Positions 48,055 to 64,000 of a stretch of 64,000 bases of DNA are shown in pieces. Source of the stretch: Escherichia coli (lineage in GTDB: Bacteria; Pseudomonadota; Gammaproteobacteria; Enterobacterales; Enterobacteriaceae). The notes under the pieces were generated by a model. It saw nothing but the letters and a program-made list of their open reading frames with translations. It was not told the origin of the DNA and made no database searches. The DNA lies in assembly GCF_001677475.2 (NCBI RefSeq), contig NZ_CP015229.1. One strand, 5' to 3'. A program made the position numbers and the translations under genes. Position 1 is the first letter of the stretch, and each line of letters begins with the position of its first letter.

Positions 48055-51000
48055 ATGGAAGAGGCATTCTGGGCGGCAAGGCAGGGTGATGCCCTGCTGC
48101 ATACGTCGTTTATGGCAGATGTGCTGGGGGCAGTTGTAGAGGTTGCCGCCACAGCCCTGGTGGATGTTCTGGTTGTCGGAACCATGGCGGCGCTGGGCGG
48201 AGTTGAAGTGGCAACGCTGGGCTGCTCAACCATTTTAGCGATCGGTATAGCAACAGCGGTATTTATGTCGTATCAGGGCTGGAATGACCGAATCAGTAGG
48301 GAAAGTGAGCAACTGGCGAACTGGCTTTTCCCGCCTCAGATTGAAGGTTACATCCTCACCGGCTCTGGCGACACATGGATCAACAGCAAACCTGCCGCGC
48401 GGGCCGCGGCGACTGCGGCATCGCGGCAGGACATTGAGGCGCAGGAGGCGCAGGCGAAGGCGGAACAGGAAGAAGCGCAGCGTCAGGAGGATGCCAGAAC
48501 GTTCCTGGATGTGGCCGGGGAATATCTGGAAATGGCGGGGGCCATAGCCCTGGCGGTTAACCCGGTGACAGGGCCTGTGCTGATGTCCCGGGCGCTGCAC
48601 GACCAGCTCAGTACGGAAGAAGGGCGTTCTGAAATGGTGGATGGCGTGACACATTTTGTGTCGGAACTATGGCAGCCCACCGTGGCCAGTGCGGCCCCGG
48701 GCTCCACCCCGACCCCTGACGATAAAATCGACTGCCATAAACATCCCTCCTCACTGACGCAGTTTCTCGCACAAAAAAAAGCCGCCTTTCTGGATGACCC
48801 CCTGGGAACGGCCCTTAACCTGCTGAGTCCGGGCGGTATGCTGGAAACCGCCTTTCAGGGAGTGAATGCGGTTATTGGCAGCATCAGTAATCTGTTCAAA
48901 GGCGATGATGAACCGCCCGCAGCGGAATATATCGCGGAAGGCGCGCGGGATGTGCGTATCAACAGCCAGCCGGCGGCACGCAGCGGGGCACGCTGCACCT
49001 GCGAGGCCAGGGTGGTGAATGAGCCGGGGAACGGGGCGTTTGTGTCACCGGATGTCCGCATTGGCGGTCCGTTACTGGTGGTCAGGGATATCAGAAGCGG
49101 CAGGTCGCAGATAACCCTGGTGGCAACCGTGGCGCTGATGTTTCTTCGCCCGGGCAAAATGCTTTCTAAAATCGCCTGTTTTGCTGCCAGTGTCGGGATG
49201 GGGGTGATGACGCAGAAGGCCATCAGTGCCCTTCCGCATCCGGTCAATGCCGCCACCGGAGCCAAATATCTGGCCGATGACGATGATTTTGACTTCAGTC
49301 TGCCGGGCCACTTTCCGCTGGACTGGCAGCGCGTGTACAGCAGTCGTGACGACCGCACGGAAGGGATGTTCGGGCAGGGCTGGAGTGTAATGTATGAAGT
49401 CAGCCTCGAGCGCACGCCGGGTACTGCTGACGAAAACTGTATGACCTTTGTGTCGGGCATGGGACGACGTCTGGATATGGAGGCCGTGCTGCCGGGGAGC
49501 GGGTTTTACAGCCCCGGCGAAGGACTGGCAGTACGGCGGGGTGAGCAGGGGCACTGGCTTATCAGCAGCGATGACGGGCAGTTTTTTCTGTTTGAGGCCG
49601 ACCCGCGTCACCCGCAGCGCCAGCGGCTGAAAATGCTGGGCGACCGCAACAGCAACTGTCTGAATCTGTACTACGACGAGCTGGGGCGCATCACGCAAAT
49701 CAGCGGTGAACAGCAGCGTCCGTGCATCCGTCTGCATTATGAACTGGCGGCGCATCCCCGGCGGGTGACACAGATTTATCAGCATTTCCCTGAGATGGCT
49801 CCTTTACTGCTGCGTCGTTACCGCTATGACGAGGCCGGCGACCTGAACGGCGTGTACGACAGCACGGGGCACCTGCTGCGCGAGTTTGCTTACGACGAAA
49901 ACCACTGCATGACCCTGCACCGCCAGCCGGGCGGCGAAGGGTATTATTACCAGTGGGGCTGGTATGAAGGCCCGGATGACGCAGCGTGGCGGGTGACGGG
50001 GCACCACACGGACAGCGGTGAACAGTACCGGCTGGCGTGGAGCCTGGCGGCACGCAGGCTGTGCGTGACGGACGGGCTGGGGCGCACGCGTTATCATCAG
50101 TGGGACGCGCAAAATCAGGTGACGGCGTACCAGGACGAAGCCGGGCAGGTGACGACGTTCCGCTGGAGCGACGAAGAACGGCTGTTACTGGGAATGACCG
50201 ATGCGCAGGGCGGCAAATGGCGCTATGTGTATGACCGGCAGGGGCATATCACGGAGACGCACGACCCGCTGGGGCGGGTGGCACAGACACAGTGGCACCC
50301 GGTGTGGCACCAGCCGGAAACGGAGGTGGACGCGGCGGGGAACAGCTGGTGCTGTGAGTACGATGAACGCGGCAATCTTCTTGCGGTGACCGACCCGCTG
50401 CAGCAGAACACCCGGTATCAGTATGACCGCCACGGCCAGGTGGTGCAGATAACGGATGCGCGCGGGGGGAATAAATACCTTCAGTGGAACGAAGACGGGC
50501 AGCTCATGCGGCACACGGACTGTTCCGGCTCGCAGACGGCCTGGTTCTACGACGAACGCACGCGGCTGATACGGATGACAGACGCGCAGAGCCACAGCAC
50601 GCGCTACGGGTATGACGACAGCGGCCACCTGACGGAGGTGATACTGGCGGACGGCCGCACGGTGAATTACCAGTCGGACGCGGCGGGCAGGCTGGTGAAG
50701 TACACCAGCCCGATGGGGAGGATAACGCGCTGGCAGCGGGACGGGCAGGGCCGGGTGCGCAGCCGGACAGACGCGACGGGGCGCAGGACGGCGTTCGGGT
50801 ACGATGCCTACGGGCGTCTGGTCACGCTCACGAACGAGAACGGAGAAAGCTACCGGTTCCGCCATGACGTGCTGGACCGTCTGGCGGAGCAGATAAATCC
50901 GGACGGCTGCCGCCAGACGTACCGCTACAACGCGCTGAACGCGGTCACGGAAGTGGTGTTCACCGGGGACCGGGGCGGTGAAATCCGCCACCGGCTGGCA

Positions 51001-52737
51001 CGTGATGCGGCGGGCCGGCTCACGGCAAAGGAGACAGCCGATGGCCATACGGAATACGTCCATGATGCGGCAGACCAGCTACTGGAAATCCGCCGCCGAC
51101 GGTCGGATGCCGGGGAAACAGACGCACCGGAGATTATCCGTTTCAGTTACGACAGACTGGGGCGGATGCTGACCGAGGAGACGGCGCAGGGCGTCCTGAC
51201 CCATCAGTACGATGAACTCAGCAACCGGACAGCCACCACCTTTCCGGATGGCAGAACGCAGCGTCATCTGTACTACGGCAGCGGCCATCTCCAGCAGATA
51301 AATCTGGACCGGGAGGTCATCAGCGAGTTCACACGTGACGCCCTGCACCGGGAAGTGCTCAGAAGTCAGGGGCGACTGAGCACGCGGCAGCTTTATGACC
51401 CCGCCGGGCGGCTGAAGCGCAGGGAGACATACAGCGGGATGCGCGGGGTGGTACCGGAGACGTTCACGGACCGGCAGTACAGCTACAGCGGCGAGGATGA
51501 ATTGCTGAAGACGCGGCACAGCCGGCGGGGGGAAACGGATTACTTCTACGACCCCACGGGGCGCATCACGGCGTGCCGCTCGGAGGATGAGAGGTATCTG
51601 GCGAGCTGGCAGTACGACGCGGCGGGAAACCTGCTGGGGAGGCGCGCGGGGGAAAGGGCCACGGCAGAAAACAGCGTGGTGCCGTTCAACCGGCTGATGT
51701 CTTACCGTGGTGTGCACTACCGTTATGACGAATTTGGCCGGACGGTGGAAAAGGAGGGCCGGAGCGGCACGCAGAGTTACCGTTATGATGCGGAACACCG
51801 GATGGTGGAAGTGACGACAGCGCGGGGGACATACCGGTATGTGTACGATGCGCTGGGGAGGCGGACGGAAAAACAGCACATCAGCCCTGACGGTAAACCG
51901 TACAACCGGACGACATTTTTATGGGACGGAATGCGGCTGGCGCAGGAGAGCAGGCCGGAGGGAATAAGCAGCCTGTATATCTACAGCGACCCGGGGAGTT
52001 ATGAACCGCTGGCGCGGGTGGATAAGGCGGGCAAAGAGGGCCCGAACCGGATACTGTATTTTCACACGGATGTGAACGGTGCGCCGGAAGAGATGACGGA
52101 CAGTGACGGGAAAATCGTGTGGGAGACGGGGTATCAGGTCTGGGGTAACACGATACAGGAGAAGGACCACGGCGGGGTGGAGCAGAACCTGCGCTACCAG
52201 GGACAGTACCTCGACAGGGAAACGGGGCTGCATTACAATCTGCACAGGTACTATGATCCGGATGTCGGGCGGTTCATGGTAACGGACCCGATAGGGCTGG
52301 CGGGGGGACTGAATCTTTACCAATACTCACCGAATCCAATAAGTTGGATCGACCCGCTGGGATTAACAGGGGAGTGGGTTAATCCCAAAGATATTAATTT
52401 TTCTCAAAGAACAATATCACCTCATGATTATGCCGATATTATGCGTAATGGTGGTTGGGATTGGGACAGGTCTCCATTAAGAGTAATTGATATTGATGGG
52501 CAATTAGTTTCTTATGATAATAGGCGATTAGACGCAGCTCTAGAGGCCGGATTAGATAAGGTTAAAGTCATTAGAGTTGACCCTAATGCTCCTCATCCTG
52601 ACTCATCTACTGGAAAAACATGGTTACAAAAATTCCGAGAGAGATTTAGAGATCGAAGAAATATAAAGGCCGGTGGAATAGTACCAGATAAAGGATTAAA
52701 TTCTCGACCGGAAAGAACATCAAGAGGTTGCAAATGA
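48055..52737 (+). CDS. Rhs-family polymorphic toxin with prePAAR motif, N-terminal TM segments, PAAR motif, YD-repeat shell and variable C-terminal toxin domain
   Basis: 1560-aa ORF; N-terminus MEEAFWAARQGDALLH fits AARxxDxxxH; hydrophobic segments at residues ~20-70; SKPAARA PAAR motif; many YD repeats; [27 protein letters not shown] demarcation before a unique ~130-aa tip. Confidence 0.85.
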   Translation: MEEAFWAARQGDALLHTSFMADVLGAVVEVAATALVDVLVVGTMAALGGVEVATLGCSTILAIGIATAVFMSYQGWNDRISRESEQLANWLFPPQIEGYILTGSGDTWINSKPAARAAATAASRQDIEAQEAQAKAEQEEAQRQEDARTFLDVAGEYLEMAGAIALAVNPVTGPVLMSRALHDQLSTEEGRSEMVDGVTHFVSELWQPTVASAAPGSTPTPDDKIDCHKHPSSLTQFLAQKKAAFLDDPLGTALNLLSPGGMLETAFQGVNAVIGSISNLFKGDDEPPAAEYIAEGARDVRINSQPAARSGARCTCEARVVNEPGNGAFVSPDVRIGGPLLVVRDIRSGRSQITLVATVALMFLRPGKMLSKIACFAASVGMGVMTQKAISALPHPVNAATGAKYLADDDDFDFSLPGHFPLDWQRVYSSRDDRTEGMFGQGWSVMYEVSLERTPGTADENCMTFVSGMGRRLDMEAVLPGSGFYSPGEGLAVRRGEQGHWLISSDDGQFFLFEADPRHPQRQRLKMLGDRNSNCLNLYYDELGRITQISGEQQRPCIRLHYELAAHPRRVTQIYQHFPEMAPLLLRRYRYDEAGDLNGVYDSTGHLLREFAYDENHCMTLHRQPGGEGYYYQWGWYEGPDDAAWRVTGHHTDSGEQYRLAWSLAARRLCVTDGLGRTRYHQWDAQNQVTAYQDEAGQVTTFRWSDEERLLLGMTDAQGGKWRYVYDRQGHITETHDPLGRVAQTQWHPVWHQPETEVDAAGNSWCCEYDERGNLLAVTDPLQQNTRYQYDRHGQVVQITDARGGNKYLQWNEDGQLMRHTDCSGSQTAWFYDERTRLIRMTDAQSHSTRYGYDDSGHLTEVILADGRTVNYQSDAAGRLVKYTSPMGRITRWQRDGQGRVRSRTDATGRRTAFGYDAYGRLVTLTNENGESYRFRHDVLDRLAEQINPDGCRQTYRYNALNAVTEVVFTGDRGGEIRHRLARDAAGRLTAKETADGHTEYVHDAADQLLEIRRRRSDAGETDAPEIIRFSYDRLGRMLTEETAQGVLTHQYDELSNRTATTFPDGRTQRHLYYGSGHLQQINLDREVISEFTRDALHREVLRSQGRLSTRQLYDPAGRLKRRETYSGMRGVVPETFTDRQYSYSGEDELLKTRHSRRGETDYFYDPTGRITACRSEDERYLASWQYDAAGNLLGRRAGERATAENSVVPFNRLMSYRGVHYRYDEFGRTVEKEGRSGTQSYRYDAEHRMVEVTTARGTYRYVYDALGRRTEKQHISPDGKPYNRTTFLWDGMRLAQESRPEGISSLYIYSDPGSYEPLARVDKAGKEGPNRILYFHTDVNGAPEEMTDSDGKIVWETGYQVWGNTIQEKDHGGVEQNLRYQGQYLDRETGLHYNLHRYYDPDVGRFMVTDPIGLAGGLNLYQYSPNPISWIDPLGLTGEWVNPKDINFSQRTISPHDYADIMRNGGWDWDRSPLRVIDIDGQLVSYDNRRLDAALEAGLDKVKVIRVDPNAPHPDSSTGKTWLQKFRERFRDRRNIKAGGIVPDKGLNSRPERTSRGCK

Positions 52738-53168
52738 AAAATATTATTCAGTTATGGGAAGATGGTTTATTACCGATAAAAGATGCTATTTACTTTTCTA
52801 ACGGTGAATCTTTCCTTTGTAAAATAACATCTTACCCTACTCCTTGTATTGAGAAAAATGGTGAGTTTGATTTCTCTGCCTTTTATGAAAAAAATAAAGA
52901 TGAAGTTACTGATATTGATAAGTCTAGAGAAGTTAAATTAGCGAATAATTGCTATTGTTGCATTGGAGAAGGTAGTTATGGTTCTGAAGGATTTATCGCA
53001 TATCTCGATGAAAATAAAAACTTAGTTTGGGTTCTTTATTCCGAAGAATCTAATCCATTTATTAATATAACTGAATATACATCTGATATTATTATAGTAG
53101 AATCAAGTTCTAATATTAGACTAAGAATAAATATAAACAATCCAGTGGATTTAGAATTGGCATTTTAA
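52734..53168 (+). CDS. Putative cognate immunity protein of the Rhs C-terminal toxin
   Basis: ATG overlaps the rhs TGA stop (ATGA); AT-rich 144-aa ORF directly downstream of a toxin tip. Confidence 0.6.
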   Translation: MKNIIQLWEDGLLPIKDAIYFSNGESFLCKITSYPTPCIEKNGEFDFSAFYEKNKDEVTDIDKSREVKLANNCYCCIGEGSYGSEGFIAYLDENKNLVWVLYSEESNPFINITEYTSDIIIVESSSNIRLRININNPVDLELAF

Positions 53169-53169
53169 A

Positions 53170-53211
53170 TAAAAAGCCGGGTGAAATTAAATCTTCCCGG
53201 CTTTTTTATTA
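53170..53211. terminator. Hairpin terminator (AAAGCCGGG-loop-CCCGGCTTTTTT), first of four copies of this motif
   Basis: Perfect GC stem flanked by A and T runs between the immunity gene and the convergent symE-like gene; similar hairpins at 57795-57835, 60412-60452 and 62816-62902. Confidence 0.7.
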
Positions 53212-53212
53212 T

Positions 53213-53542
53213 TTAACTCTCGTTCAGCACACTAAACATCCCGTTCCGCATCCCCTTAACCACCTGTTTAACCTGATAAAGTTCTTCCCGCAGCTCCTGC
53301 ACCTCGTCACTGTCAGCGATGATGGTCAGGTACCCCTCCGAAATCTTCACCGTGACACCCCGCCCGGTATCAAATCCCGCCTCAGCCAGCCAGTCGCCCT
53401 TGAGGTGCAGGCTGGGATGTTGTGAATAATACCGGGCTATACCTGTTGTGCGGTCCTGGTGGCGGGTTCTGACATAGCCGACTTTATAGCGGCGCTGGGT
53501 TTTGGAAATGGTGACTTCTGGCGTAATATCGTGTTCAGCCAT
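53213..53542 (-). CDS. SymE-like protein (type I toxin family, AbrB/MazE-like fold), full-length copy
   Basis: 109-aa ORF; core HLKGDWLAEAGFDTGRGVTVKISEGYLTII resembles SymE KGxWLxxAGFxxGxxVxV motif as recalled. Confidence 0.6.
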   Translation of the reverse strand: MAEHDITPEVTISKTQRRYKVGYVRTRHQDRTTGIARYYSQHPSLHLKGDWLAEAGFDTGRGVTVKISEGYLTIIADSDEVQELREELYQVKQVVKGMRNGMFSVLNES

Positions 53543-53781
53543 GATTAACTACTCCTGTTAGTTGCTTGTGGTGAGCGGCTGTTACAGGCGGCAACCTGTA
53601 GCAGTCGCGTTAAATATCAACGCATTACCTTCATTACCTGCTTCATCTTCTCCTGGGTGATCGCCATATCCAGAATACGGCAGATCACTTCCTGATCGTC
53701 TGCTTTAAGCTCATCAACCTGCTTACACAGTTCTTTTAACCGCTTGTTTTTTATATCGAAAACATCGCGGAAGAAGAAGGT

Positions 53782-54861
53782 GTGCGCCAGGCGGCCTACG
53801 CGCTCAAGCTGTTGCAGTCGGACGGGGAACTGACCATCGCCAGTACGGGCAAGGATGACGCCAGCGGTAACCTGGTCACCAAACAGTATACGGTGAAAGG
53901 CCCGGTGATGCTGATGCTGACCACCACCGCCATCGATGTTGACGAGGAGTTACTCAACCGCTGTCTGGTGCTGACGGTGAACGAATCGCGGGAACAGACG
54001 GAAGCTATCCACGCGGCGCAGCGTTACGCGCAGACGCTGGAAGGACTGCTGGCGGCTAACGAAAAAAGTTACATCACGCAGCTTCACCAGAACGCGCAGC
54101 GGCTGCTGCGCCCGCTCAACGTGGTGAACCCGTTCGCCTCGCAGCTCACGTTCATGAGCGACAAAACCCGCACCCGGCGCGACCACATGAAATACCTGAC
54201 GCTGATCCAGGCGATCGCCCTGCTGCACCAGTACCAGCGGGAGATCAAGCGCGTGGAGCATCGCGGGCAGGTGGTGGAGTACATCGAGGTCACGCGGGAG
54301 GACATCGCCCTGGCGAACCGCCTGGCACATGAAATACTCGGGCGCACCCTGGATGAAATGCCGCCGCAGACGCGCAAACTGTTAACCCTGATCCAGCAAT
54401 GGGTGAGCGACAGCGGTCAGGCGCGTGAGGCGATGCGGTTCACCCGTAAACAACTGCGTGACGCGGTACAGTGGGGCGACACGCAGCTCAAGATCCACCT
54501 GGCGCGGCTGGTCGAAATGGAATATCTGCTGGTCCACCGTCTCGGGCTGACGTTCTGCTATGAACTGCTGTTCGACGGGGACGGCAGCGCAGACACCGCG
54601 CACCTGTGCGGGCTGATCGACGTACCGGAACCACCGTATGACGTCGCCCGGTCGGGGGAAACGGTGAAGCAGCTGGCCTCTGGTCGGGCAGTGGTCGGCG
54701 GTCAGTCGGGTAAGGAAAAAACCGCCTCAGACCAGACACCACGAGGCTTACAGGCCGGAGCGGTCGGGGCAGAGGAAAAAGCCCTGTTCCGGCAGAACGC
54801 AAAAAAACCGTCCCGCAATCATACTGCGGCCCGTCCGGGCCGGAGCAACACGGAAGCATAA
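53782..54861 (+). CDS. Hypothetical protein, apparently 5'-truncated (no ATG; frame closed by TAA just upstream); function unknown
   Basis: 1080-nt open frame in GC-rich DNA, far longer than the overlapping opposite-strand ORFs; no family recognised. Confidence 0.35.
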   Translation: MRQAAYALKLLQSDGELTIASTGKDDASGNLVTKQYTVKGPVMLMLTTTAIDVDEELLNRCLVLTVNESREQTEAIHAAQRYAQTLEGLLAANEKSYITQLHQNAQRLLRPLNVVNPFASQLTFMSDKTRTRRDHMKYLTLIQAIALLHQYQREIKRVEHRGQVVEYIEVTREDIALANRLAHEILGRTLDEMPPQTRKLLTLIQQWVSDSGQAREAMRFTRKQLRDAVQWGDTQLKIHLARLVEMEYLLVHRLGLTFCYELLFDGDGSADTAHLCGLIDVPEPPYDVARSGETVKQLASGRAVVGGQSGKEKTASDQTPRGLQAGAVGAEEKALFRQNAKKPSRNHTAARPGRSNTEA

Positions 54862-55065
54862 GTACGACTTCATCCGGTCGGGGCAACGGCTGCAATAGTC
54901 GGCCCCTGGTCGGCAGTCAGTCGGCGGGTAGTCGGGGTGCGTAAAACCCCCGCAGGCCGCGCCCGGCAAGGTTCAGGCCATGAAGCGGTCGGCCTGCCTG
55001 AAAATCACTGTTCCATCCTCTGTTCTTCTCTCTGTCGTACCGTAATCTCAATCAGGACAATCATC

Positions 55066-56095
55066 ATGACAAAACCCATCCCTCCGGGGCCGGAGGAACT
55101 TTACCTCAGCCGCCAGAACCTGACGCAGCGCCAGTATGTGGTGGTGTGGCTGGAATACCTGACGGCACAGAACTACAGCGCGATCAGCGTAAGCGACTAT
55201 CGCGAACGGGTGTTACCGTTCGTGACATGGTGTGAGGAGCGCGGGCTGATGTACGCGCCGCAGGTCAGCCAGCCGCAGCTTGAAAGCTATCAGCGCCACC
55301 TTCACGGCTACCGTAAGGCGGACGGCCATCCGCTGGCGGTCAGCGGTCAGGTGGGCCGGATAAGCGCGATAAAAATCTTTTACCGCTGGCTGCTGAAGCG
55401 GCATGTGATCCTGTACAACCCCGCCGATCTGCTGGAACTGCCAAAGCCGGACAAACGGCTTCCGGCGCAGGTGTTCAGTAAGGGCGAGACGCGGCAGGTG
55501 TTACAGAGCCTTGATATCAACACGCCCGTTGGCCTGCGCAACCGGACAATCCTTGAGGTGCTGTGGAGTACCGGGATCAGGCGGATGGAGCTGGCCAGCC
55601 TGATGTTGTGGGATGTTGACACCGGGCGCGGTGTGGTTAACGTGCGGCAGGGTAAGGGGCGTAAGGATCGGGTGGTTCCGGTGGGCCATGTGGCGCTGGG
55701 ATGGCTGGCAAGACGTGCGACCACAGATGACGCGCCAGCGCGACAGTGGTCATCTGTTCGTGACGAAATACGGCAGCGGGATGAAACGCAACACGCTGAC
55801 GGCGATGGCAGGCACCGCGATCCGGGAAACGGCACGGATCGACAAACCGGGCGCGTGCCATATCTTCCGGCACTCGATGGCGACGCAGATGCTGGACAAT
55901 GGCGCAGACACGCGGCATATCCAGGCGATCCTCGGCCATGAGAAGCTGGAGACGACGCAGATCTACACGAAGGTGGCCATAAAGCCGTTGCAGAAGGTTC
56001 ATGCGCGGACGCACCCGGCAGAGAAGCGGCGAAGGGAAAAGCGCGTGCAGCAGCCGGACGAGGCCACCGTATCGCCGGACAGCCTGAAAAGTTAG
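55066..56095 (+). pseudogene. Tyrosine recombinase (phage-integrase family) with frameshift
   Basis: N-terminal SAM-like domain in one frame to ~55710 ([13 protein letters not shown]), catalytic domain ([16 protein letters not shown]...[13 protein letters not shown]...[13 protein letters not shown]) in the other frame from ~55700; single indel inferred. Confidence 0.65.
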
Positions 56096-57005
56096 GTGGC
56101 GATCCCTGTAAGGCCGTGGGGTGCGGTGCAGGGCAGACAACCGCCTTCCCTGGCGGTTGACTGCCCCCTGCCAGCGGCGTGCGCGGGGGTAAATGCCGTC
56201 CGCCCCGTGGAGGCAGCCGCGCCCCATGCGACCATGCAGCACGGGGCAAACGTCATTCAACATAATGCGGATTATGCGCACTCTCGCCGGTCGGCAATGA
56301 CGGCGAACCCGATCCGCTGTGCGCGGCTCGTGTTCGCACAATCCGCATTATGTCTGACGCCCCCGCGTTCAGCCCCGTGGTCCGTGCAGCGCAAAGCTTC
56401 GCTGGCGCTCCGCTCTGCTGCCGGGTGCGGTGTTCTTCTGTGGCCCCGCAGTCGCCGCCATCCCTGGCGGCTCCGGTGCCGTTCTGCGGCAGCGTCATCG
56501 TGTGGCAGTCAGTCAGAAAAGGGTGTCGGCCTGGCGGCCTCCGCTTGTAAGGGCTTTATGCCCGCCCGGCGTCGTCTGGCTGCGGCGGCTCGTGCCGCGC
56601 AAAAAGGCCGCGCGTCACTCGTTCCCGCCTCGCCAGCTTCCGCTGCCCGCCCCGGTCAGGTGTGGTCATGCAAAGGCAACCCCCGGTCAGGCAGCGGTGC
56701 CACAGAGCGCCGTTCCGTCGCTTGCGGACTCTCTGCCGCCCGCACCCGCAGACCCCGCGCCGTGGCCCCGCCATGCCGCCGGAGGCGTCCTGGCGGCCCC
56801 CCGTCACGGGGTGCCGGAAACGGACTTAGTGGAAAGCGGAATGACAGGCGGTGGTGGTGGTGCTATGGTGAGCGGGCGTGAAAATGCGCGTCGGGAAAGT
56901 CGGGTTAACGTGCTGTTAAATAAGTAAAAGGTGATAGCCGGGAAGCCAGAAACGGCGCGGGCGGTAGCGTGTTAAAAAGTGTGACCTGCACCGGATCGTT
57001 CCGAT

Positions 57006-57515
57006 GACCCGATAGGACTGCGGGGTGGATTAAATCTCTATCAATATGCGCCGAATCCGTTGAGCTATATTGATCCTCTTGGCCTTTGTAAATTAAGGGG
57101 AAGTAATGGGCGCTTCAGAAGTGCTCAGAATATTCAGGAAGAAATAGGCGGACTACCTAATTTTTCAGGGAAGACTCCAGGGCAAATACGACAAACTTTG
57201 CGTAATCGAGTTTATTCGTCGGTACAAGCGCATAGTGGTGGAGAGGTCTGGACAAAAGCATTACCTGACGGAAATACTGTTGCTGTGAGAATTGACCCGG
57301 CAAATCCTCGCTCACCTTCACATTATGCTGATGCTGTGCCTCATGCTCATATTGAAACAGTTCCAACGTCCAGTGTTTCTAATGGGAATTATCGCCCACG
57401 AGACGTGACTGGCAGGCATACTGCCACTGGTGGGATTTCTGACCGAGGAACGAATCCGAATCATAATGCTGATGTTCACATTCCAATGTCTCCGGGACGA
57501 TTCCCATATAATTAA
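57006..57515 (+). CDS. Orphan Rhs C-terminal toxin module (DPIGL homology patch plus toxin tip), no upstream core
   Basis: Frame opens with [28 protein letters not shown] then a unique ~140-aa domain; no ATG at the patch. Confidence 0.6.
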   Translation, partial: DPIGLRGGLNLYQYAPNPLSYIDPLGLCKLRGSNGRFRSAQNIQEEIGGLPNFSGKTPGQIRQTLRNRVYSSVQAHSGGEVWTKALPDGNTVAVRIDPANPRSPSHYADAVPHAHIETVPTSSVSNGNYRPRDVTGRHTATGGISDRGTNPNHNADVHIPMSPGRFPYN

Positions 57516-57526
57516 TGTGAGGTTTT

Positions 57527-57790
57527 ATGAATATCCGAAATCAATATAATGAAGCCTTAAATAAATTAGAAGTTGATGTTAATGATGGTTTAAGAGATTT
57601 AATAAACATATATTGTGTAGCTATTGATTCTTTTGAAAATGATATCGTTGACTCGATTGCTTTATACGTGATTGATATGGGAAATAAAGATACTTGTCGA
57701 TATCTACAAGAAATATTATCAGAGAATGAAGATCCTTATTTAGTAAAAGAATTTAATGCATGGATGAAAGAAATTAAGAAAAAATATTAA
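57527..57790 (+). CDS. Putative immunity protein for the orphan toxin at 57006-57515
   Basis: AT-rich 87-aa ORF 11 nt downstream of the toxin stop with RBS-like GAGG. Confidence 0.5.
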   Translation: MNIRNQYNEALNKLEVDVNDGLRDLINIYCVAIDSFENDIVDSIALYVIDMGNKDTCRYLQEILSENEDPYLVKEFNAWMKEIKKKY

Positions 57791-57836
57791 AATAAAAGCC
57801 GGGACGGTTATTAAATCTTCCCGGCTTTTTTATTAC

Positions 57837-58070
57837 TTAACTTTCGTTCAGCACACTAAACATCCCGTCACGCATTCCCTTAACCGCCTGTTTAACCAGA
57901 TAAAGTTCCCTGCGCAGTTCCTGTACTTCGTTGTTATCCGCAAGCAGGATCAGACATCCTTCCGAGATCTTCACGGTGACGCCCGTGCCGATCTCAAATC
58001 CCGCTTCTCTCAGCCATTTTGCGCTGATTTTGATTACCGGCGTGTCGCTGCGGTTGGGCAGATAACCCAC
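57837..58070 (-). CDS. SymE-like protein, short paralog (77 aa)
   Basis: KISAKWLREAGFEIGTGVTVKISEGCLILLADNNEVQELRRELY...; synonymous differences from copy 1 in this frame. Confidence 0.55.
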   Translation of the reverse strand: MGYLPNRSDTPVIKISAKWLREAGFEIGTGVTVKISEGCLILLADNNEVQELRRELYLVKQAVKGMRDGMFSVLNES

Positions 58071-58263
58071 GGTACAGTGGCGCTGTGTTTTGGAAATGAT
58101 ATTCTTATATTTAATCTGCTGATTAGATAGTAAAATTAACTTCGTGCAGATAGCTTACTTTATCAGGGTGCGGCGGTAGTGTATGAACTATGACGTGATG
58201 GTTTTAGTGATTTATATACGAAAATGACAGTACGATCCGGACTTCGAATAGATTGCGCGATTT

Positions 58264-58413
58264 GACCCGATAGGGCTGGCGGGGGGATTAAATCTCTATC
58301 AATATGCGCCTAATCCGTTAAGTTATATTGATCCACTTGGATTGTGTCCTAAAACTGACTTTAAATGGGGAAATCCCAGGGAAAGATCACGTAATGCTGC
58401 TTTTTTGTACTAA
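58264..58413 (+). pseudogene. Truncated orphan rhs C-terminal fragment
   Basis: [49 protein letters not shown] then stop, just before the ISAs1 element. Confidence 0.5.
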
Positions 58414-58419
58414 ACAATT

Positions 58420-59700
58420 CGCATTTTATGTTTAAAAATTGAGATATTCCTCATTACATAAAGCTGTTTTTTATTGCTTATACATGATCAAATACTCCTT
58501 ACATAATTAAGGAGAACAAAATGGAACTTAAAAAATTGATGGAACATATTTCTATTATCCCCGATTACAGACAAGCCTGGAAAGTGGAACATAAATTATC
58601 GGATATTCTACTGTTGACTATTTGTGCCGTTATTTCGGGTGCAGAAGGCTGGGAAGATATAGAGGATTTTGGGGAAACACATCTCGATTTTTTGAAGCAA
58701 TATGGTGATTTTGATAATGGTATTCCTGTTCACGATACCATTGCCAGAGTTGTATCCTGTATCAGTCCTGCAAAATTTCACGAGTGCTTTATTAACTGGA
58801 TGCGTGACTGCCATTCTTCAGATGATAAAGACGTCATCGCAATTGATGGAAAAACGCTCCGGCATTCTTATGACAAGAGTCGCCGCAGGGGAGCGATTCA
58901 TGTCATTAGTGCGTTCTCAACAATGCACAGTCTGGTCATCGGACAGATCAGGACGGATGAGAAATCAAATGAAATTACAGCTATCCCTGAACTTCTTAAC
59001 ATGCTGGATATTAAAGGAAAAATCATCACAACTGATGCGATGGGTTGCCAGAAAGATATTGCAGAGAAGATACAAAAACAGGGAGGTGATTATTTATTCG
59101 CTGTAAAAGGAAACCAGGGGCGGCTAAATAAAGCCTTTGAGGAAAAATTCCCACTGAAAGAATTAAATAATCCAGAGCATGACAGTTACGCAATTAGTGA
59201 AAAGAGTCACGGCAGAGAAGAAATCCGTCTTCACATTGTTTGCGATGTCCCTGATGAACTTATTGATTTCACGTTTGAATGGAAAGGACTGAAGAAATTA
59301 TGCGTGGCAGTCTCCTTTCGGTCAATAATAGCAGAACAAAAGAAAGAGCCAGAAATGACGGTCAGATATTATATCAGTTCTGCTGATTTAACCGCAGAGA
59401 AGTTCGCCACAGCAATCCGAAACCACTGGCACGTGGAGAATAAGCTGCACTGGCGTCTGGACGTGGTAATGAATGAAGACGACTGCAAAATAAGAAGAGG
59501 AAACGCCGCAGAATTATTTTCAGGGATACGGCACATCGCTATTAATATTTTAACGAATGATAAGGTATTCAAGGCAGGGTTAAGACGTAAGATGCGAAAA
59601 GCAGCCATGGACAGAAACTATCTCGCGTCAGTCCTTGCGGGGAGCGGGCTTTCGTAATCTTGCCCTGGGGGAAATCCAAAAAGTAAGCCTACATACGGTC
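58420..59700 (+). mobile_element. ISAs1-family (H-repeat) element; ends not precisely mapped
   Basis: Contains the 378-aa H-repeat-associated transposase ORF; boundaries approximate. Confidence 0.6.
58521..59657 (+). CDS. ISAs1-family transposase (H-repeat-associated protein, YhhI/YbfD-like)
   Basis: 378-aa ORF with typical H-rpt protein content; K-12 rhs loci carry homologues. Confidence 0.8.
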
Positions 59701-59726
59701 ACACATTTTCTGAACACGGACAGAAA

Positions 59727-59993
59727 ATGAAACCAAGTCAGTTAATTGATCGTGCCAGAAATAAAGGTCATCAAGTAGGACAATATCTCGATGATAATTC
59801 TGCTGCTGATTTTATTGCTTCTGTTGCCAAAAAAGGTCCGGGTGTGCATGATGTGCCATTGCCTACAAATATAAAAGGTCGAGGTTATTTGCCTGATGGG
59901 ACAGAGGTCGTTCCAGATATGGCAAGGGTTGTTGTAAAACCCGATGGTTCTGTACGAACATCGTTCCCATTCAATTCATCACACACCAACTAA
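59727..59993 (+). CDS. Hypothetical protein, possibly the distal part of an orphan toxin split by the ISAs1 insertion
   Basis: 88-aa ORF starting 70 nt after the H-rpt transposase stop, followed by an immunity-like ORF. Confidence 0.35.
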   Translation: MKPSQLIDRARNKGHQVGQYLDDNSAADFIASVAKKGPGVHDVPLPTNIKGRGYLPDGTEVVPDMARVVVKPDGSVRTSFPFNSSHTN

Positions 59994-60010
59994 AGTAATG
60001 AAGGGTATAT

Positions 60011-60391
60011 ATGAATGAAATAGATAAGATCTGTAGTGAACTTGGCGTACCAGTTGGTGATAAGTTTACACAAGATTGGGCTTATGAACTGCCTGAAAAA
60101 TATCGAACTAAAGAGTGGCTAAGTAAATACATTGCTGCATACTTAAACAATGGCTACTCCCAAAAAGGGAAGACTGAATTAATGACTTTAGCCCTTGATG
60201 TCTGTAATGATTTATTATCTTCTGGAGTACCCCCATCAGATGAGGTTATTATAAAAGTACTCAACGCCCTGCGTGATAATTACAAAAATCATATAGATCT
60301 TATTAATTATTGGTCCTTGGATGATGAATCTTTAGATGACAGTTTTGCATTAACTCCTGAAATAAGGGAGCTAAAAAGAAGATTGATTTAG
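60011..60391 (+). CDS. Putative immunity protein
   Basis: AT-rich 126-aa ORF followed by the shared hairpin terminator and a convergent symE-like gene. Confidence 0.45.
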   Translation: MNEIDKICSELGVPVGDKFTQDWAYELPEKYRTKEWLSKYIAAYLNNGYSQKGKTELMTLALDVCNDLLSSGVPPSDEVIIKVLNALRDNYKNHIDLINYWSLDDESLDDSFALTPEIRELKRRLI

Positions 60392-60452
60392 GATTATAAT
60401 ATTATTAAGTTATAAAAAGCCGGGAATATAATCTTCCCGGCTTTTTTATTAT

Positions 60453-60695
60453 TTAACTCTCGTTCAGCACACTAAACATCCCGTCACGCATCCCCTTAAC
60501 CGCCTGTTTAACCTGATAAAGTTCCCTGCGCAGTTCCTGTACTTCGTTGTTATCCGCGAGCAGGATCAGGCAACCTTCCGAGATCTTCACGGTAACGCCC
60601 GTACCGATCTCAAATCCCGCTTCTCTCAGCCATTTGGCGCTGATTTTGATCACCGGCGTGTCGCTGCGGTTGGGCAGATGCTGCGCTGGCAGCAC
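60453..60695 (-). CDS. SymE-like protein, paralog with replaced 5' end
   Basis: Near-identical to the 57837-58070 copy from codon ~5 onward; upstream sequence replaced by the rhs core fragment at ~60700. Confidence 0.5.
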   Translation of the reverse strand: MLPAQHLPNRSDTPVIKISAKWLREAGFEIGTGVTVKISEGCLILLADNNEVQELRRELYQVKQAVKGMRDGMFSVLNES

Positions 60696-60704
60696 GACGG
60701 CAGA

Positions 60705-62083
60705 GCCAGACGTACCGTTACAACGCGCTGAACGCGGTCACGGAAGTGGTGTTCACCGGGGACCGGGGCGGTGAAATCCGCCACCGGCTGGCACGTGATG
60801 CGGCGGGCCGGCTCACGGCAAAGGAGACAGCCGATAGCCGAACGGAATACGTCCATGATGCGGCAGACCAGCTACTGGAAATCCGCCGCCGACGGTCGGA
60901 TGCCGGGGAAATGGACGCACCGGAGATTATCCGTTTCAGTTACGACAGACTGGGGCGGATGCTGACTGAGGAGACGGCGCAGGGCGTCCTGACCCATCAG
61001 TACGATGAACTCAGCAACCGGACAGCCACCACCTTTCCGGACGGCAGAACGCAGCGTCATCTGTACTACGGCAGCGGCCATCTCCAGCAGATAAATCTGG
61101 ACCGGGAGGTCATCAGCGAGTTCACACGTGACGCCCTGCACCGGGAAGTGCTCAGAAGTCAGGGGCGACTGAGCACGCGGCAGCTTTATGACCCCGCCGG
61201 GCGGCTGAAGCGCAGGGAGACATACAGCGGGATGCGCGGGGTGGTACCGGAGACGTTCACGGACCGGCAGTACAGCTACAGCGGCGAGGATGAACTGCTG
61301 AAGACGCGGCACAGCCGGCGGGGGGAAACGGATTACTTCTACGACCCCACGGGGCGCATCACGGCGTGCCGCTCGGAGGATGAGGGGTATCTGGCGAGCT
61401 GGCAGTACGACGCGGCGGGAAACCTGCTGGGGAGGCGCGCGGGGGAAAGGGCCACGGCAGAAAACAGCGTGGTGCCGTTCAACCGGCTGATGTCTTACCG
61501 TGGTGTGCACTACCGTTATGACGAATTTGGCCGGACGGTGGAAAAGGAGGGCCGGAGCGGCACGCAGAGTTACCGTTATGATGCGGAACACCGGATGGTG
61601 GAAGTGACGACAGCGCGGGGGACATACCGGTATGTGTACGATGCGCTGGGGAGGCGGACGGAAAAACAGCACATCAGCCCTGACGGTAAAGCGTACAACC
61701 GGACGACATTTTTATGGGACGGAATGCGGCTGGCGCAGGAGAGCAGGCCGGAGGGAATAAGTAGCCTGTATATCTACAGCGACCCGGGGAGTTATGAACC
61801 GCTGGCGCGGGTGGATAAGGCGGGCAAAGAGGGCCCGAACCGGATACTGTATTTTCACACGGATGTGAACGGTGCGCCGGAAGAGATGACGGACAGTGAC
61901 GGGAAAATCGTGTGGGAGACGGGGTATCAGGTCTGGGGTAACACGATACAGGAGAAGGACCACGGCGGGGTGGAGCAGAACCTGCGCTACCAGGGACAGT
62001 ACCTCGACAGGGAAACGGGGCTGCACTACAATCTGCACAGGTACTATGATCCGGATGTCGGGCGGTTCATGGTAACGGACCCG
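60705..62083 (+). repeat. Near-identical direct repeat of the main rhs core 3' region (50914-52292)
   Basis: Nucleotide and protein near-identity to the main rhs over ~1.38 kb with a handful of substitutions (read by eye). Confidence 0.8.
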
Positions 62084-62518
62084 ATAGGGCTGAGAGGCGG
62101 ATTAAACTTATACCAATACGCGCCTAATCCGTTAAGCTGGATCGATCCTCTTGGATTAAGTGCCGCCTCTGATTTACCTCAATTAAAAGGAAGATCCCCA
62201 GGGGCAATAGGTTCTATTCTTACTGATAATGGATTCAATTTAGATAAACAAACAAGTACCGGGAATCAGACTTGGAGCCACGCCGATGGTTCTAAAGTTC
62301 GTGTCGATCCCTATGGAAACCAAAGTATGACTATGAAAAACGGTGATCCATTACCGAAATCAGGAGCTAACGCACATGTGCATAAATATGATCCCGGTGA
62401 GATACCGCTGAATGACAGAGGCATTCCGAGTACAAATCCAAATGAAACACATATAGGGATCAGGAATCCAAATGATTATTCTACAAAACGAGGGCGGGCC
62501 CATGGGTGCGGCGTATAA
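60746..62518 (+). CDS. Orphan Rhs fragment: C-terminal part of YD-repeat core plus an alternative C-terminal toxin tip
   Basis: 590-aa ORF; first ~455 aa match the main Rhs, ending [27 protein letters not shown], then a unique ~120-aa tip. Confidence 0.8.
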   Translation: MVFTGDRGGEIRHRLARDAAGRLTAKETADSRTEYVHDAADQLLEIRRRRSDAGEMDAPEIIRFSYDRLGRMLTEETAQGVLTHQYDELSNRTATTFPDGRTQRHLYYGSGHLQQINLDREVISEFTRDALHREVLRSQGRLSTRQLYDPAGRLKRRETYSGMRGVVPETFTDRQYSYSGEDELLKTRHSRRGETDYFYDPTGRITACRSEDEGYLASWQYDAAGNLLGRRAGERATAENSVVPFNRLMSYRGVHYRYDEFGRTVEKEGRSGTQSYRYDAEHRMVEVTTARGTYRYVYDALGRRTEKQHISPDGKAYNRTTFLWDGMRLAQESRPEGISSLYIYSDPGSYEPLARVDKAGKEGPNRILYFHTDVNGAPEEMTDSDGKIVWETGYQVWGNTIQEKDHGGVEQNLRYQGQYLDRETGLHYNLHRYYDPDVGRFMVTDPIGLRGGLNLYQYAPNPLSWIDPLGLSAASDLPQLKGRSPGAIGSILTDNGFNLDKQTSTGNQTWSHADGSKVRVDPYGNQSMTMKNGDPLPKSGANAHVHKYDPGEIPLNDRGIPSTNPNETHIGIRNPNDYSTKRGRAHGCGV

Positions 62519-62530
62519 GGTAAGAAATTA

Positions 62531-62815
62531 ATGAGTGTTGAATATGTTATACATGTCGATGATAAAGTAGATAATTTACTTTCTTTTATTGTCGAGAGAA
62601 TAAAGGAAAATCAACCATCCTCTCGAATTAATACTGACGGTTCACTTTGGATTCCATCTAGCTATTCAAATTGGATTGATTTTTCAATAGAAGACCATGA
62701 GGATGGTTTTTTTATTGTAAATAATTTAAATGGAAGTGATAGAGATAAATTATTTTCACTGATATTTACTGCCTTTCATGAATTATCTATAAAATATGAA
62801 ATAGAAGAAGTCTAA
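62531..62815 (+). CDS. Putative immunity protein for the orphan toxin tip at 62120-62518
   Basis: AT-rich 94-aa ORF 12 nt downstream of the toxin stop. Confidence 0.5.
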   Translation: MSVEYVIHVDDKVDNLLSFIVERIKENQPSSRINTDGSLWIPSSYSNWIDFSIEDHEDGFFIVNNLNGSDRDKLFSLIFTAFHELSIKYEIEEV

Positions 62816-62828
62816 TGAAAGCCGGGTT

Positions 62829-62880
62829 TTTGGACTGACCCCATAAAGTTGGACACCCAACTGATTAAGGTGCAGTCCAA
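62829..62880. mobile_element. Miniature inverted-repeat element resembling back-to-back IS3-family terminal repeats, inserted in a terminator loop
   Basis: TTGGACTGACCCCATAAAGTTGGACA ... CAGTCCAA; resembles the IS IR TGAACTGCACCCCAAATGTTGGACA at 1044; the other three hairpin copies lack this ~52-bp segment. Confidence 0.4.
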
Positions 62881-62902
62881 CATATTCCCGGCTTTTTATT
62901 AT

Positions 62903-63136
62903 TTAACTCTCGTTCAGTACACTAAATATCCCGTCACGCATACCCTTAACCACCTGTTTAACCTGATAAAGTTCCCTGCGCAGTTCCTGTACTTCGTTGT
63001 TATCTGCAAGCAGGATCTGGCAGCCTTCCGAGATCTTCACGGTAACGCCCGTGCCGATCTCAAATCCCGCTTCTCTCAGCCATTTTGCGCTGATTTTGAT
63101 TACCGGCGTGTCGCTGCGGTTGGGCAGATAACCCAC
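62903..63136 (-). CDS. SymE-like protein, short paralog (77 aa)
   Basis: Near-identical to the 57837-58070 copy. Confidence 0.55.
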   Translation of the reverse strand: MGYLPNRSDTPVIKISAKWLREAGFEIGTGVTVKISEGCQILLADNNEVQELRRELYQVKQVVKGMRDGIFSVLNES

Positions 63137-63329
63137 GGTACAGTGGCGCTGTGTTTTGGAAATGATATTTTTGTATTTAACCTGCTGATTAGATAGTAAA
63201 ATAAACTTCGTGCAGATAGCTTACTTTATCAGGGTGTGGCGGTAGCGTATGAACTATGATGCGGTGGTTTCAGGAATGTACGTACAAAATCGATAGTACG
63301 ATCCTCCAATCAGGTAGATTTGCTGCCCT

Positions 63330-63734
63330 GATCCGATAGGGCTAAGAGGCGGGCTGAACCTGTATGCTTATGCGCCTAATCCGCTGAAATATATTGATCC
63401 ACTCGGATTAAAAAAAGAGCTCTGTAATGGAACTACTCGTGTGCGGCATTATACTAATCGTAAAGGTTCAAATGCGATTGCTGAAAGTGGGATAATTAAG
63501 GCGCATGATAACGGTCGTGTATATTTGGAACCTGCGAATAAAAAACCACTCAGTCAAGTAGACATAGAGGCGAAATATCAAATAGGTCGTGGGAAAGGTA
63601 GAGATTATGTGGATACAGATGTATCTAACGAGCAATTAGAGTGGGTAACAAACCCTCGATATCATATAGATGAATTGACTGTGAAAGGTGATATTATTCT
63701 TTCTGAAAATGCAAAAATAACTCGGCGTAAATAA
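63330..63734 (+). CDS. Orphan Rhs C-terminal toxin module
   Basis: Opens with DPIGLRGGLNLYAYAPNPLKYIDPLGL then a unique ~105-aa domain. Confidence 0.6.
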   Translation, partial: DPIGLRGGLNLYAYAPNPLKYIDPLGLKKELCNGTTRVRHYTNRKGSNAIAESGIIKAHDNGRVYLEPANKKPLSQVDIEAKYQIGRGKGRDYVDTDVSNEQLEWVTNPRYHIDELTVKGDIILSENAKITRRK

Positions 63735-63735
63735 T

Positions 63736-64000
63736 ATGAATAAAAACAATGATGTAATTAATATACCCGGAAAGGATGCCCTTTATATTCTAAGTGAGGT
63801 AGAGTACATATTGATATCACTTAAGAATATTGCAAGGTATTATTTCAATGGTATAGAACAGAACGTTATTGATGATAAATTGTTGAATTCTTACTTTAAA
63901 GAAACCACTAAATTTATTGATGATAAAAATATTACACATCGATTGGCTGAAATAAGAAGGGTTATTACTGAAAATTTTAATACTGATCTTGGAGATGATG
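63736..64000 (+). CDS. Putative immunity protein (3' end beyond window)
   Basis: AT-rich ORF starting 1 nt after the orphan toxin stop; open to window end. Confidence 0.45.
   Translation, partial: MNKNNDVINIPGKDALYILSEVEYILISLKNIARYYFNGIEQNVIDDKLLNSYFKETTKFIDDKNITHRLAEIRRVITENFNTDLGDD

Follow-up and report, generated by a model that had tools for sequence, protein, structure and literature searches.

Why should the toxin/immunity modules of an orphan rhs array be followed, one after the other, by the same hairpin and by a SymE-like open reading frame (ORF) on the opposite strand? The question is raised by a 64,000-nucleotide stretch of the Escherichia coli contig NZ_CP015229.1 (RefSeq assembly GCF_001677475.2), hereafter the window, in which a sequence-only reading had described the array between positions 53,170 and 64,000 and had found no place for this coupling in the known Rhs architecture. 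Comparison with other genomes indicates that the array is probably explained by successive integrations of an element of about 7 kb at the rhs core end, with SymE as a gene of the element backbone.

The replacement of toxin tips in Rhs and contact-dependent inhibition (CDI) systems, and the build-up of orphan arrays, have been a standing question since 2009. Jackson et al. (2009) proposed a tip displacement model with predicted circular intermediates and RecA, no integrase linked to rhs being known, and Poole et al. (2011) mention neither an integrase nor a recombinase. XerC/D is mentioned by Zhang et al. (2012) only beside polyimmunity loci. The coupling of SymE to Rhs is itself not wholly undescribed, as the legend of Fig. 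7A in Kawano, Aravind and Storz (2007; PMC1891008) records cHTH, Prim-Hel and RHS/haemagglutinin genes in the vicinity of SymE; the paper offers no mechanism joining SymE and Rhs. The same authors found SymE to be toxic in K-12, noted it as a selfish module and counted 14 SymE copies in an Erwinia genome, while later papers have noted SymE genes in type VI secretion system (T6SS), Rhs or CDI clusters as unexplained. Full-text searches of the literature, which leave most subscription journals out of reach, returned no description of a recombinase/primase element targeting rhs.

An intact unit in related genomes

In E. coli 200164 and d1-58, at the same rhs locus between kdp and ybgA, a larger unit is repeated two or three times in tandem. 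Its order is toxin tip, immunity gene, symE and a helix-turn-helix (HTH) gene on the minus strand, a DNA primase gene of about 2.9 kb and a xerC-like gene on the plus strand, and about 1 kb of further sequence before the next tip. One genome per bacterial species was scanned with an alignment of the primase, and this survey returned 74 loci in Citrobacter, Pectobacterium, Photorhabdus, Xenorhabdus, Brenneria, Samsonia, Dickeya, Serratia and Edaphovirga, together with one uncultured betaproteobacterial metagenome-assembled genome. SymE, HTH, primase, XerC, the rhs core and the core-end (CE) motif, which comprises the last 27 codons of the core, were mapped on all survey loci. Most loci on sufficiently long contigs have the order rhs core, CE, cargo, symE (-), HTH (-), primase (+), xerC (+), spacer, CE. 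SymE lies at most 1.1 kb upstream in 71 of the 76 primase genes, the CE stands 0.7-2.0 kb upstream of SymE and leaves between them the slot for cargo, and the complete CE-to-CE units (n = 28) measure 6.2-7.8 kb.

The full primase protein combines a CHC2 zinc ribbon, a DnaG core, a Toprim domain and a C-terminal P-loop. An intact relative of the XerC-like protein scores 527.6 bits on the tyrosine recombinase model NF002331 (cut-off 371), and the HTH protein is similar to the phage repressor RstR. A perfect palindrome (TATTGACCTGTAT/ATACAGGTCAATA) occupies positions 12853-12880 of the d1-58 locus (L002), in the promoter region from which HTH and primase diverge and which is deleted in the window; it is likely to be the operator of the HTH repressor. 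The spacer from xerC to the next CE is non-coding, with 59-67% G+C and a near-constant length of 936-1058 nt in all genera; as for a protein gene in it, tblastx across genera gave no consistent frame and the longest ORFs vary in strand and frame. A hairpin with invariant ends ACATAATG...CATTATGT is conserved within the spacer (window 56260-56353, L018 7268-7330, L039 14107-14201). Its two length classes show 4 and 7 compensatory pairs, and its arms are similar to Xer-type half sites; the hairpin may serve as an origin or as a site of resolution, or act as an RNA.

The backbone has a G+C content of 57-67% in all hosts sampled, Photorhabdus and Xenorhabdus included. These two genera are AT-rich, and in them the composition of the backbone is foreign; the cargo looks AT-rich by eye. 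Within E. coli the backbone is rare, being present in 59 of 5426 complete genomes, but has a median of 4 copies in those that carry it; symE-type sequence occurs in 220 genomes.

Two circular plasmid records carry the spacer|CE junction and no full-length rhs gene, namely those of Shigella flexneri SWHIN_104 (8758 bp), in which an insertion sequence and a fragment of 387 nt of rhs core are also present, and of Lonsdalea populi N-5-1 (11289 bp), with no core sequence, two cassettes and an extra RelE/DinJ pair. Several contigs of draft genomes consist of exactly one unit, starting with GACCCGATAGGG and ending with ...CCCTAT or with the same 12-mer. Perfect tandem dimers, 100% identical over 6.7 kb, are found in the complete genome of Pectobacterium aroidearum L6 (L046) and in several Xenorhabdus, and in X. 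japonica two backbones that are 100% identical carry different toxin cargo. Identical tandem backbones with different cargo point to very recent insertion or amplification and to the exchange of cargo on a fixed backbone. Whole-unit tandem copies with 100% identity are found at L046, L039, L049, L050 and L060.

A decayed copy of the unit in the window

The main rhs gene of the window (48055..52737, plus strand) is an ORF of 1560 aa, 93% identical to the rhs of d1-58. Its CE, of 81 nt and reading GACCCGATAGG...DPLGL, lies at 52285-52365 and belongs to a repeat family; the current toxin tip (52366-52737) and its immunity gene (52728..53168, a 146-aa ORF without a family match) follow on the same strand. 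The CE, encoding DPIGL...DPLGL, has five copies in the window (starts 52285, 57006, 58264, 62078 and 63330), which are 67-87% identical to the reference copy and are each followed by distinct ORFs, as in an orphan rhs-CT/immunity array. The window toxin tips and immunity proteins tested had no significant Pfam or NCBIfam match.

The first four immunity genes are followed by the hairpin AAAGCCGGG...CCCGGCTTTTT, with an A-tract, a GC-rich stem and a T-tract, and the four hairpins fold on both strands (-16.6 to -41.6 kcal/mol, z -4.0 to -7.5). Hairpin 1 (53172..53208; -16.6 and -17.0 kcal/mol on the two strands) is a bidirectional terminator and marks the left edge of the conserved backbone, homology with other units beginning at 53164-53190.

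Between symE copy 1 and the next unit, from 53.6 to 57.0 kb, lies no filler sequence but the decayed backbone of a mobile element. Positions 53190-53764 match symE and the 3' end of the HTH gene of d1-58; of the latter gene the last 48 of 132 codons remain (53620..53763, minus strand; tblastn 100% to amino acids 85-132 of the d1-58 protein). At 53763/53764, the junction of a deletion of about 2.2 kb, the match jumps from HTH into the primase gene. The primase-helicase remnant (53755..54630, plus strand; tblastn 96.6%) covers amino acids 611-902 of 909, in an ORF that continues to 54861. The xerC-like tyrosine recombinase is a pseudogene (55066..56092, plus strand), matched by tblastn over amino acids 1-216 in frame 1 and 200-351 in frame 2, and its frameshift falls near 55650-55713. 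The right end of the element is a GC-rich (67%) non-coding spacer (56096..57005), 92-93% identical to the spacers of 200164 and d1-58; it ends in ...GGATCGTTCCGAT directly before the next CE, and the junction at 57005/57006 is of the conserved spacer/CE type. This piecewise match to d1-58 and its relatives thus identifies a decayed copy of the larger unit. By the same comparison, the newest element of the window would span 52285-57005, having lost the 5' end of HTH and two thirds of the primase, with xerC frameshifted. The window as a whole holds one decayed element and three further-decayed relics, in which the older elements appear to persist only as a hairpin and a 5'-truncated piece of symE.

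The spacer/core-end junction and the movement of cassettes

Among 25 unique junctions from about nine genera, the spacer meets the CE as ...TAAAAAGTAtGAC(N)ATCGTCCCTAT|GACCCGATAGGGCTG, where GACCCGATAGGGCTG represents the first CE codons. The junction contains the inverted repeat CCCTAT-GACCCG-ATAGGG, found in the putative attP/attR of many genera, the left arm being CCCGAT in E. coli; its 6-6-6 arrangement is the layout that would be expected of a tyrosine-recombinase core site. The sequence GACCCGATAGG(G) stands as a direct repeat at both ends of a unit (52285 and 57006 in the window), and in many pairs it is the sole long identical block. Neighbouring CEs that are not identical (n = 17 pairs) share 64-99% of their positions. 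Their longest exact block is of at most 14 nt in nine of the 17 pairs and of 17-26 nt in five more, and in the window it is limited to the first 11 nt. Such short exact identity leaves little substrate for RecA and places any crossover at the palindrome.

Cassettes bounded by the CE are also found attached to other rhs cores. Orphan unit 1 of the window is 94% identical, from the exact first base of the CE, to copies joined to an rhs core in 21 E. coli genomes, E2348/69 among them. The papain-fold tip cassette of d1-58 stands on an rhs core in three genomes, where homology sets in no more than one base away from the start of the CE. The same tip, immunity and hairpin cassettes were seen at the ansP-pptA locus of E. 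coli E2348/69 (L079) and at the vgrG-rhs-nfrB locus of JNE23-011 (L162), and the symE remnants that follow them are even shorter, 201 nt and 108 nt respectively. No pair of empty and occupied sites at one locus was found in closely related strains; the cassettes were met at other rhs loci instead. The proposal of the sequence-only reading that toxin, immunity gene and symE are exchanged as a unit holds for their joint travel, with the same sets recurring at other rhs loci and in other strains, but not for its three-gene extent: the exchanged unit appears to be the element of about 7 kb, in which SymE is the first backbone gene and is followed by HTH, primase-helicase, XerC-like recombinase and spacer.

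An array of this kind could also be built by homologous recombination, along the lines of Jackson et al. (2009). A circle holding tip, immunity gene and a piece of rhs core would enter by a RecA-dependent single crossover, with the XerC-like protein only resolving multimers and SymE acting in plasmid addiction. Circles of just that kind were proposed in 2009, and the Shigella circle is explicable by recombination between tandem backbones. Some units have 0.4-1.5 kb of rhs core before the tip (window 60696-62077, L019, L037, L054, L055), identical symE'/core junctions recur in the window and in 200164 (L001), and the CEs of P. asymbiotica are mosaic. In most elements, however, core homology amounts to just 81 nt; exact identity reaches at most 14 nt in roughly half of the pairs that are not identical, and in clearly different pairs it stays within 26 nt. 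RecA pathways in E. coli need about 25-30 bp of identity, and exact blocks at or below this length weigh against the homologous model. Moreover, the element-side sequence beside the CE is conserved across genera and palindromic with the first CE codons, which homology-driven insertion does not need. Homologous recombination is therefore judged unlikely to be the origin of these arrays, although it also reshapes them, as is shown by mosaic CEs and by the units with 0.4-1.5 kb of rhs core (orphan unit 3 of the window and some in Photorhabdus and Xenorhabdus).

SymE open reading frames

All four minus-strand ORFs were found at the coordinates given by the sequence-only reading, whose hairpin motif and example peptides were also correct. 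Profile searches bear out its assignment to the SymE family: copy 1 (53213..53542) matches the Pfam domain SymE_toxin PF08845 with E=8.9e-20 and copy 2 with E=3.3e-11, and all four ORFs match the NCBIfam SymE model NF010128 (38-43 bits, E about 1e-9 to 1e-11), far below its equivalog cut-off of 132 bits. By these scores they are members of the SymE family and not orthologues of K-12 SymE. Constraint at the protein level, which the same reading had drawn from an enrichment of synonymous changes, is confirmed by ratios of nonsynonymous to synonymous substitution rates (dN/dS) well below 1, namely 0.16-0.22 for copy 1 paired with copies 2-4 and 0.03-0.16 when copies 2-4 are compared with one another, the full range between copies being 0.02-0.35. 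With significant family matches and dN/dS not near 1, neither of the corresponding outcomes that it had named as arguing against genes was observed.

It is barely credible that these reading frames arose by chance within conserved DNA serving as a recombination anchor. A proper start is indeed missing in three of the four, but the significant SymE matches, the low dN/dS and the intact homologues in about ten genera already contradict this explanation, both for copy 1 and for the whole family.

Only copy 1, on the minus strand and of 109 aa, is full-length. It is colinear with full-length annotated SymE genes of other E. coli, and 29 contigs carry the identical protein under the annotation of SymE family toxin. 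Copies 2 (57837-58103; listed ORF 57837-58070, 77 aa) and 4 (62903-63169), both on the minus strand, belong to a second SymE subtype of 97 aa (MAEHDITPEVTISKTQRRCTVGY...). Their homology starts at ...ISKTQR, about 11 codons after the ATG of the subtype, and ends at 58098 in copy 2; the GTG 'start' of both is an internal codon, the valine of TVGY. Copy 3 (60453-60695, minus strand) is cut about 21 codons in, at LPNRSD, and joined to an antisense rhs core fragment, its GTG 'start' again being an internal codon; this symE'/core junction is found twice in 200164 (L001 2198 and 4716). As a consequence of truncation, copies 2-4 lack the ATG, the SymR-like 5' region, the promoter region and all upstream parts. 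SymE-family sequence does stand behind four units, but the earlier description of every module as capped by a SymE gene is overstated, because three of the four ORFs are 5'-truncated relics of the backbone.

The short ORFs (77-80 aa) might still be functional, each kept with its orphan module as a truncated AbrB-fold protein that regulates the adjacent toxin or protects against it. In the window, all three remain intact and retain the core of the SymE_toxin domain. The exact 80-aa truncated protein occurs on 335 contigs, forms of 77-81 aa are annotated as proteins in E. albertii, E. marmotae and E. fergusonii, and intact ORFs of 77-83 aa are widespread in four Escherichia species. Furthermore, dN/dS is 0.16 for copies 2 and 4, which share their truncation, and 0.14-0.33 among three copies with the core-fusion junction. 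On the other hand, compared with the intact copies, the short ORFs have no ATG and have lost the first 10-21 codons, together with the SymR region, the promoter/operator and the HTH gene. Copy 2 has no Shine-Dalgarno sequence just upstream of its GTG (by eye), the first codons of copy 3 are antisense rhs core, and the points of truncation vary, with remnants of 201, 108, 243 and 267 nt. A low dN/dS could be inherited from a functional ancestor or upheld by gene conversion from intact copies. A function kept with each module is on balance doubtful, but the ratios of the truncated copies leave room for residual function as well as for gene conversion. For annotation, the 'SymE toxins' of 77-83 aa called in hundreds of Escherichia genomes are on this evidence 5'-truncated remnants.

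Antisense RNAs and regulation

An isrA-like sequence (53343..53471, plus strand) is antisense to the middle of symE copy 1, with 107.5 bits on Rfam RF01385 against a gathering score of 51; the truncated copies reach 33-35 bits, below threshold. A SymR-like antisense segment covers the start of symE (53537..53611, plus strand), as a weak match to RF01809 (39 bits, gathering score 61, E=2e-4). With the same model, Lonsdalea scores 52-54 bits and Pectobacterium 41 bits, again at the start of symE and on the strand opposite to it. Matches of this kind are found at the 5' end of symE in four genera, and the truncated copies 2-4 have none. Partial matches to Ssr1 (RF02627) are present on all four copies, at 88-283 bits against a gathering score of 820.

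The antisense role suggested by the sequence-only reading finds outside support in the isrA match and in the inverse expression of IsrA and its target STM0294.1n in Salmonella (PMC2330248), but it fails as an explanation of the coupling: the antisense RNA is a feature of the toxin-antitoxin module. In a stronger form of the idea, the block would be kept for an RNA on the toxin strand, either an IsrA/Ssr1-like 3' extension or a small RNA (sRNA), and not for the SymE protein. Besides the isrA score, the Ssr1 matches and the Salmonella data, the detection of the Ssr1 sRNA by northern blot and 5' RACE (rapid amplification of cDNA ends) beside an Rhs gene in S. flexneri speaks in its favour. However, the substitutions are codon-periodic in the minus-strand frame, which selection on an RNA of the other strand does not yield, the Ssr1 scores are far under the gathering score, and a strong terminator stands upstream of the block on the plus strand. 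Selection for such an RNA is accordingly quite improbable. Control by LexA, as for K-12 symE, was considered and set aside: the consensus pattern CTGT-N8-ACAG, the only form searched, does not occur in the 24.5 kb of the d1-58 locus, which holds two intact elements.

Proposed mechanism

The SymE-like genes would be backbone genes of an integrative, plasmid-like element of 6-8 kb, whose cargo is an Rhs toxin tip with its immunity gene. The predicted circular form starts with attP, in which the right-end spacer abuts the 81-nt copy of the rhs core end. It would continue with tip, immunity gene and the bidirectional terminator hairpin, then on the opposite strand with symE, accompanied by a SymR-like antisense RNA, and a Cro/cI-type HTH repressor, and, divergent from the palindromic operator, with the primase-helicase and the XerC-like recombinase, before the GC-rich non-coding spacer of about 1 kb. 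On integration, attP would recombine with the same 12-nt sequence GACCCGATAGGG (the DPIG codons) in the chromosomal rhs gene. The incoming tip would thereby be fused in frame to the resident rhs core, while the old tip and its immunity gene would be displaced downstream, behind the right end of the element, and repeated integrations would give the orphan array. In this scheme the XerC-like protein is the presumed catalyst at the palindrome and the primase would replicate the free circle. SymE/SymR would act as the addiction module that stabilises the element, and the HTH protein as its repressor, possibly also as an antitoxin-like partner. Deletions would then erode the backbones, and since the cargo-adjacent piece, made of the hairpin and the 3' part of symE, outlasts the rest, the regular 'capping' of the modules would be explained.

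Several observations weigh against integration by this element. Free circular records are rare, with two in PLSDB and none in IMG/VR, and the Shigella circle could derive from homologous recombination between tandem backbones or from a tandem repeat that was assembled as a circle. In the window the element is dead, and integration and excision are predicted from genome comparison. The rhs side of the putative attB has no obvious symmetry in its left arm. At some junctions in Photorhabdus (L019/L024/L037) and Xenorhabdus (L054/L055), 400-600 nt of rhs core follow XerC, which points to homologous events. The CEs of two distinct P. asymbiotica tips agree over their first 68 nt, and exchange therefore takes place within the CE as well. 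Copies with the same truncation differ at a dN/dS well below 1, which would not be predicted for plain relics. The SymR match is under the Rfam threshold, and the addiction role of SymE is proposed by analogy with its family (Kawano 2007).

Relation to known systems

The element shares with the tip displacement models and orphan arrays of Jackson et al. (2009) and Poole et al. (2011) the array of core-end fragment, toxin and immunity gene downstream of a full rhs, in which new tips displace old ones. It differs in that each tip is physically joined to a recombinase gene, a presumed replicase gene and a presumed addiction module. With K-12 SymE/SymR it has in common the AbrB-fold SymE_toxin domain and, as a weak match, a SymR-like antisense segment over the 5' end. 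It differs from that pair in the scores given above, in the lack of a consensus LexA box at the d1-58 locus, and in the position of the gene, operon-like behind the HTH gene and inside a mobile backbone.

Genomic islands and elements of the P4 type insert into the 3' end of tRNA genes by means of a tyrosine recombinase and carry a replacement 3' end. They resemble the element in the tyrosine recombinase, in an attP with a copy of the target 3' end, in the highly conserved target, and in the primase-helicase and repressor; here, by contrast, the target is a protein-coding motif, DPIGL, of the Rhs core, and the replacement 3' end is a different one, so that integration alters the gene product and does not restore it. 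No capsid-interaction or transfer genes were seen in the element backbone. An origin from a phage or satellite was rejected: in IMG/VR the matches were all distant and of the DnaG domain, mostly with 22-32% identity across roughly the first 350 residues, and in the phage collection nothing covers more than 36% of the primase. The Aux3 element of the Vibrio cholerae T6SS also combines an effector/immunity pair with a tyrosine recombinase and forms a circle; it is reportedly prophage-like and moves a whole effector module, with no fusion of a toxin domain to a resident gene.

Integrons and recombinase-associated immunity arrays, such as the rAID loci of Bacteroidales, are alike in that small cassettes accumulate serially beside a tyrosine recombinase. 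An integron was nevertheless rejected, as the recombinase of the element reaches 124 and 67 bits on integron-integrase models whose cut-offs are 265 and 435, and each unit holds a full backbone and no attC-type cassettes. Elements of the IMEX type, which use the host XerCD at dif, were ruled out as well, as the element encodes its own recombinase and the junction lies in rhs and not in dif.

Related backbones of HTH, primase and XerC were seen in tandem after the end of a TpsA2/CdiA-like gene and its immunity gene, on the plasmids pPA1609-475 of P. aeruginosa (L161) and pCFSAN006171_1 of Salmonella (L160); in the latter, a backbone copy lies near a ShlB/FhaC gene. The primase of the Pseudomonas plasmid backbone is 55-59% identical, and VbhA and RelE/ParE modules replace SymE. 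The element family may thus also target two-partner-secretion or other polymorphic toxins. A broader proposition, to which we incline only slightly, is that widespread self-replicating integrative elements use the conserved ends of polymorphic-toxin genes as attachment sites, each integration swapping the toxin domain and adding an immunity gene. The site would be the DPIGL-coding DNA in rhs and, by extension, the CdiA/TpsA C-terminal region in the Pseudomonas-type relatives.

If integration by such elements is the correct account, it would supply the missing enzymatic mechanism for the 'C-terminal displacement' of Rhs, and toxin tips would spread as the cargo of a dedicated vehicle and not by chance recombination. 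The conserved palindromic junction sits in the most conserved Rhs codons and makes the question directly testable. One element would also unite the 'SymE family' annotations in rhs/CDI loci, the Salmonella IsrA, the Shigella Ssr1 and the 14 SymE copies of Erwinia, which suggests that the toxin repertoires of Enterobacterales are shaped by a selfish element with interests of its own.

Organisation of the remaining units

The rhs region of the window is directly preceded by kdpFABC, whose genes are at most 97.8% identical to those of any of the 5426 complete E. coli genomes. All orphan units are on the plus strand. Orphan unit 1 (57006..57790) comprises a CE (57006-57086), a toxin ORF (57060-57515) and an immunity gene (57527-57790), and is followed by hairpin 2 (57794-57830) and symE copy 2. 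Orphan unit 3 (60696..62815) opens with an rhs core fragment of 1.4 kb, before a CE (62078-62158), a tip that extends to 62518 and an immunity gene (62531-62815). Hairpin 4 (62817-62897) stands between this unit and symE copy 4, and carries in its loop a palindromic insertion of about 50 nt (62833-62882), with composite folds of about -40 kcal/mol. A search for the exact hairpin pattern with a loop of up to 12 nt returned copy 3 only, because the loops of hairpins 1 and 2 measure 13-14 nt and hairpin 4 holds this insertion. Orphan unit 4 (63330..64000) has a CE (63330-63410) and a toxin ORF (63441-63734) and continues beyond the end of the window.

Two segments of 160 nt (58104-58263 and 63170-63329), about 80% identical to each other by eye, join a truncated symE to the next CE and are faintly similar, in alignment, to the right end of the element. 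A non-autonomous 'mini-element' made of CE, tip, immunity gene, truncated symE and this 160-nt right end was considered for copies 2 and 4. It was rejected and treated as a deletion derivative, because the whole 160-nt junction is found in just 2 of the 5426 E. coli genomes and its left arm is degenerate.

The list of orphan toxin/immunity units in the sequence-only reading stands, except that its unit at 59.7-60.4 kb begins at 58264 and is split by an insertion. This orphan unit 2 (58264..60391) has a CE (58264-58344), a tip whose start extends to 58376 and whose remainder extends to 59993, and an immunity gene (60011-60391); hairpin 3 (60414-60446) and symE copy 3 follow. The tip is split by an ISAs1/H-repeat insertion (about 58377-59667, transposase 58521-59657) and is uninterrupted in E. 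coli 200164 (L001 3581-6168). The overlapping ends of the matches at this insertion suggest a target duplication of about 9-10 bp.

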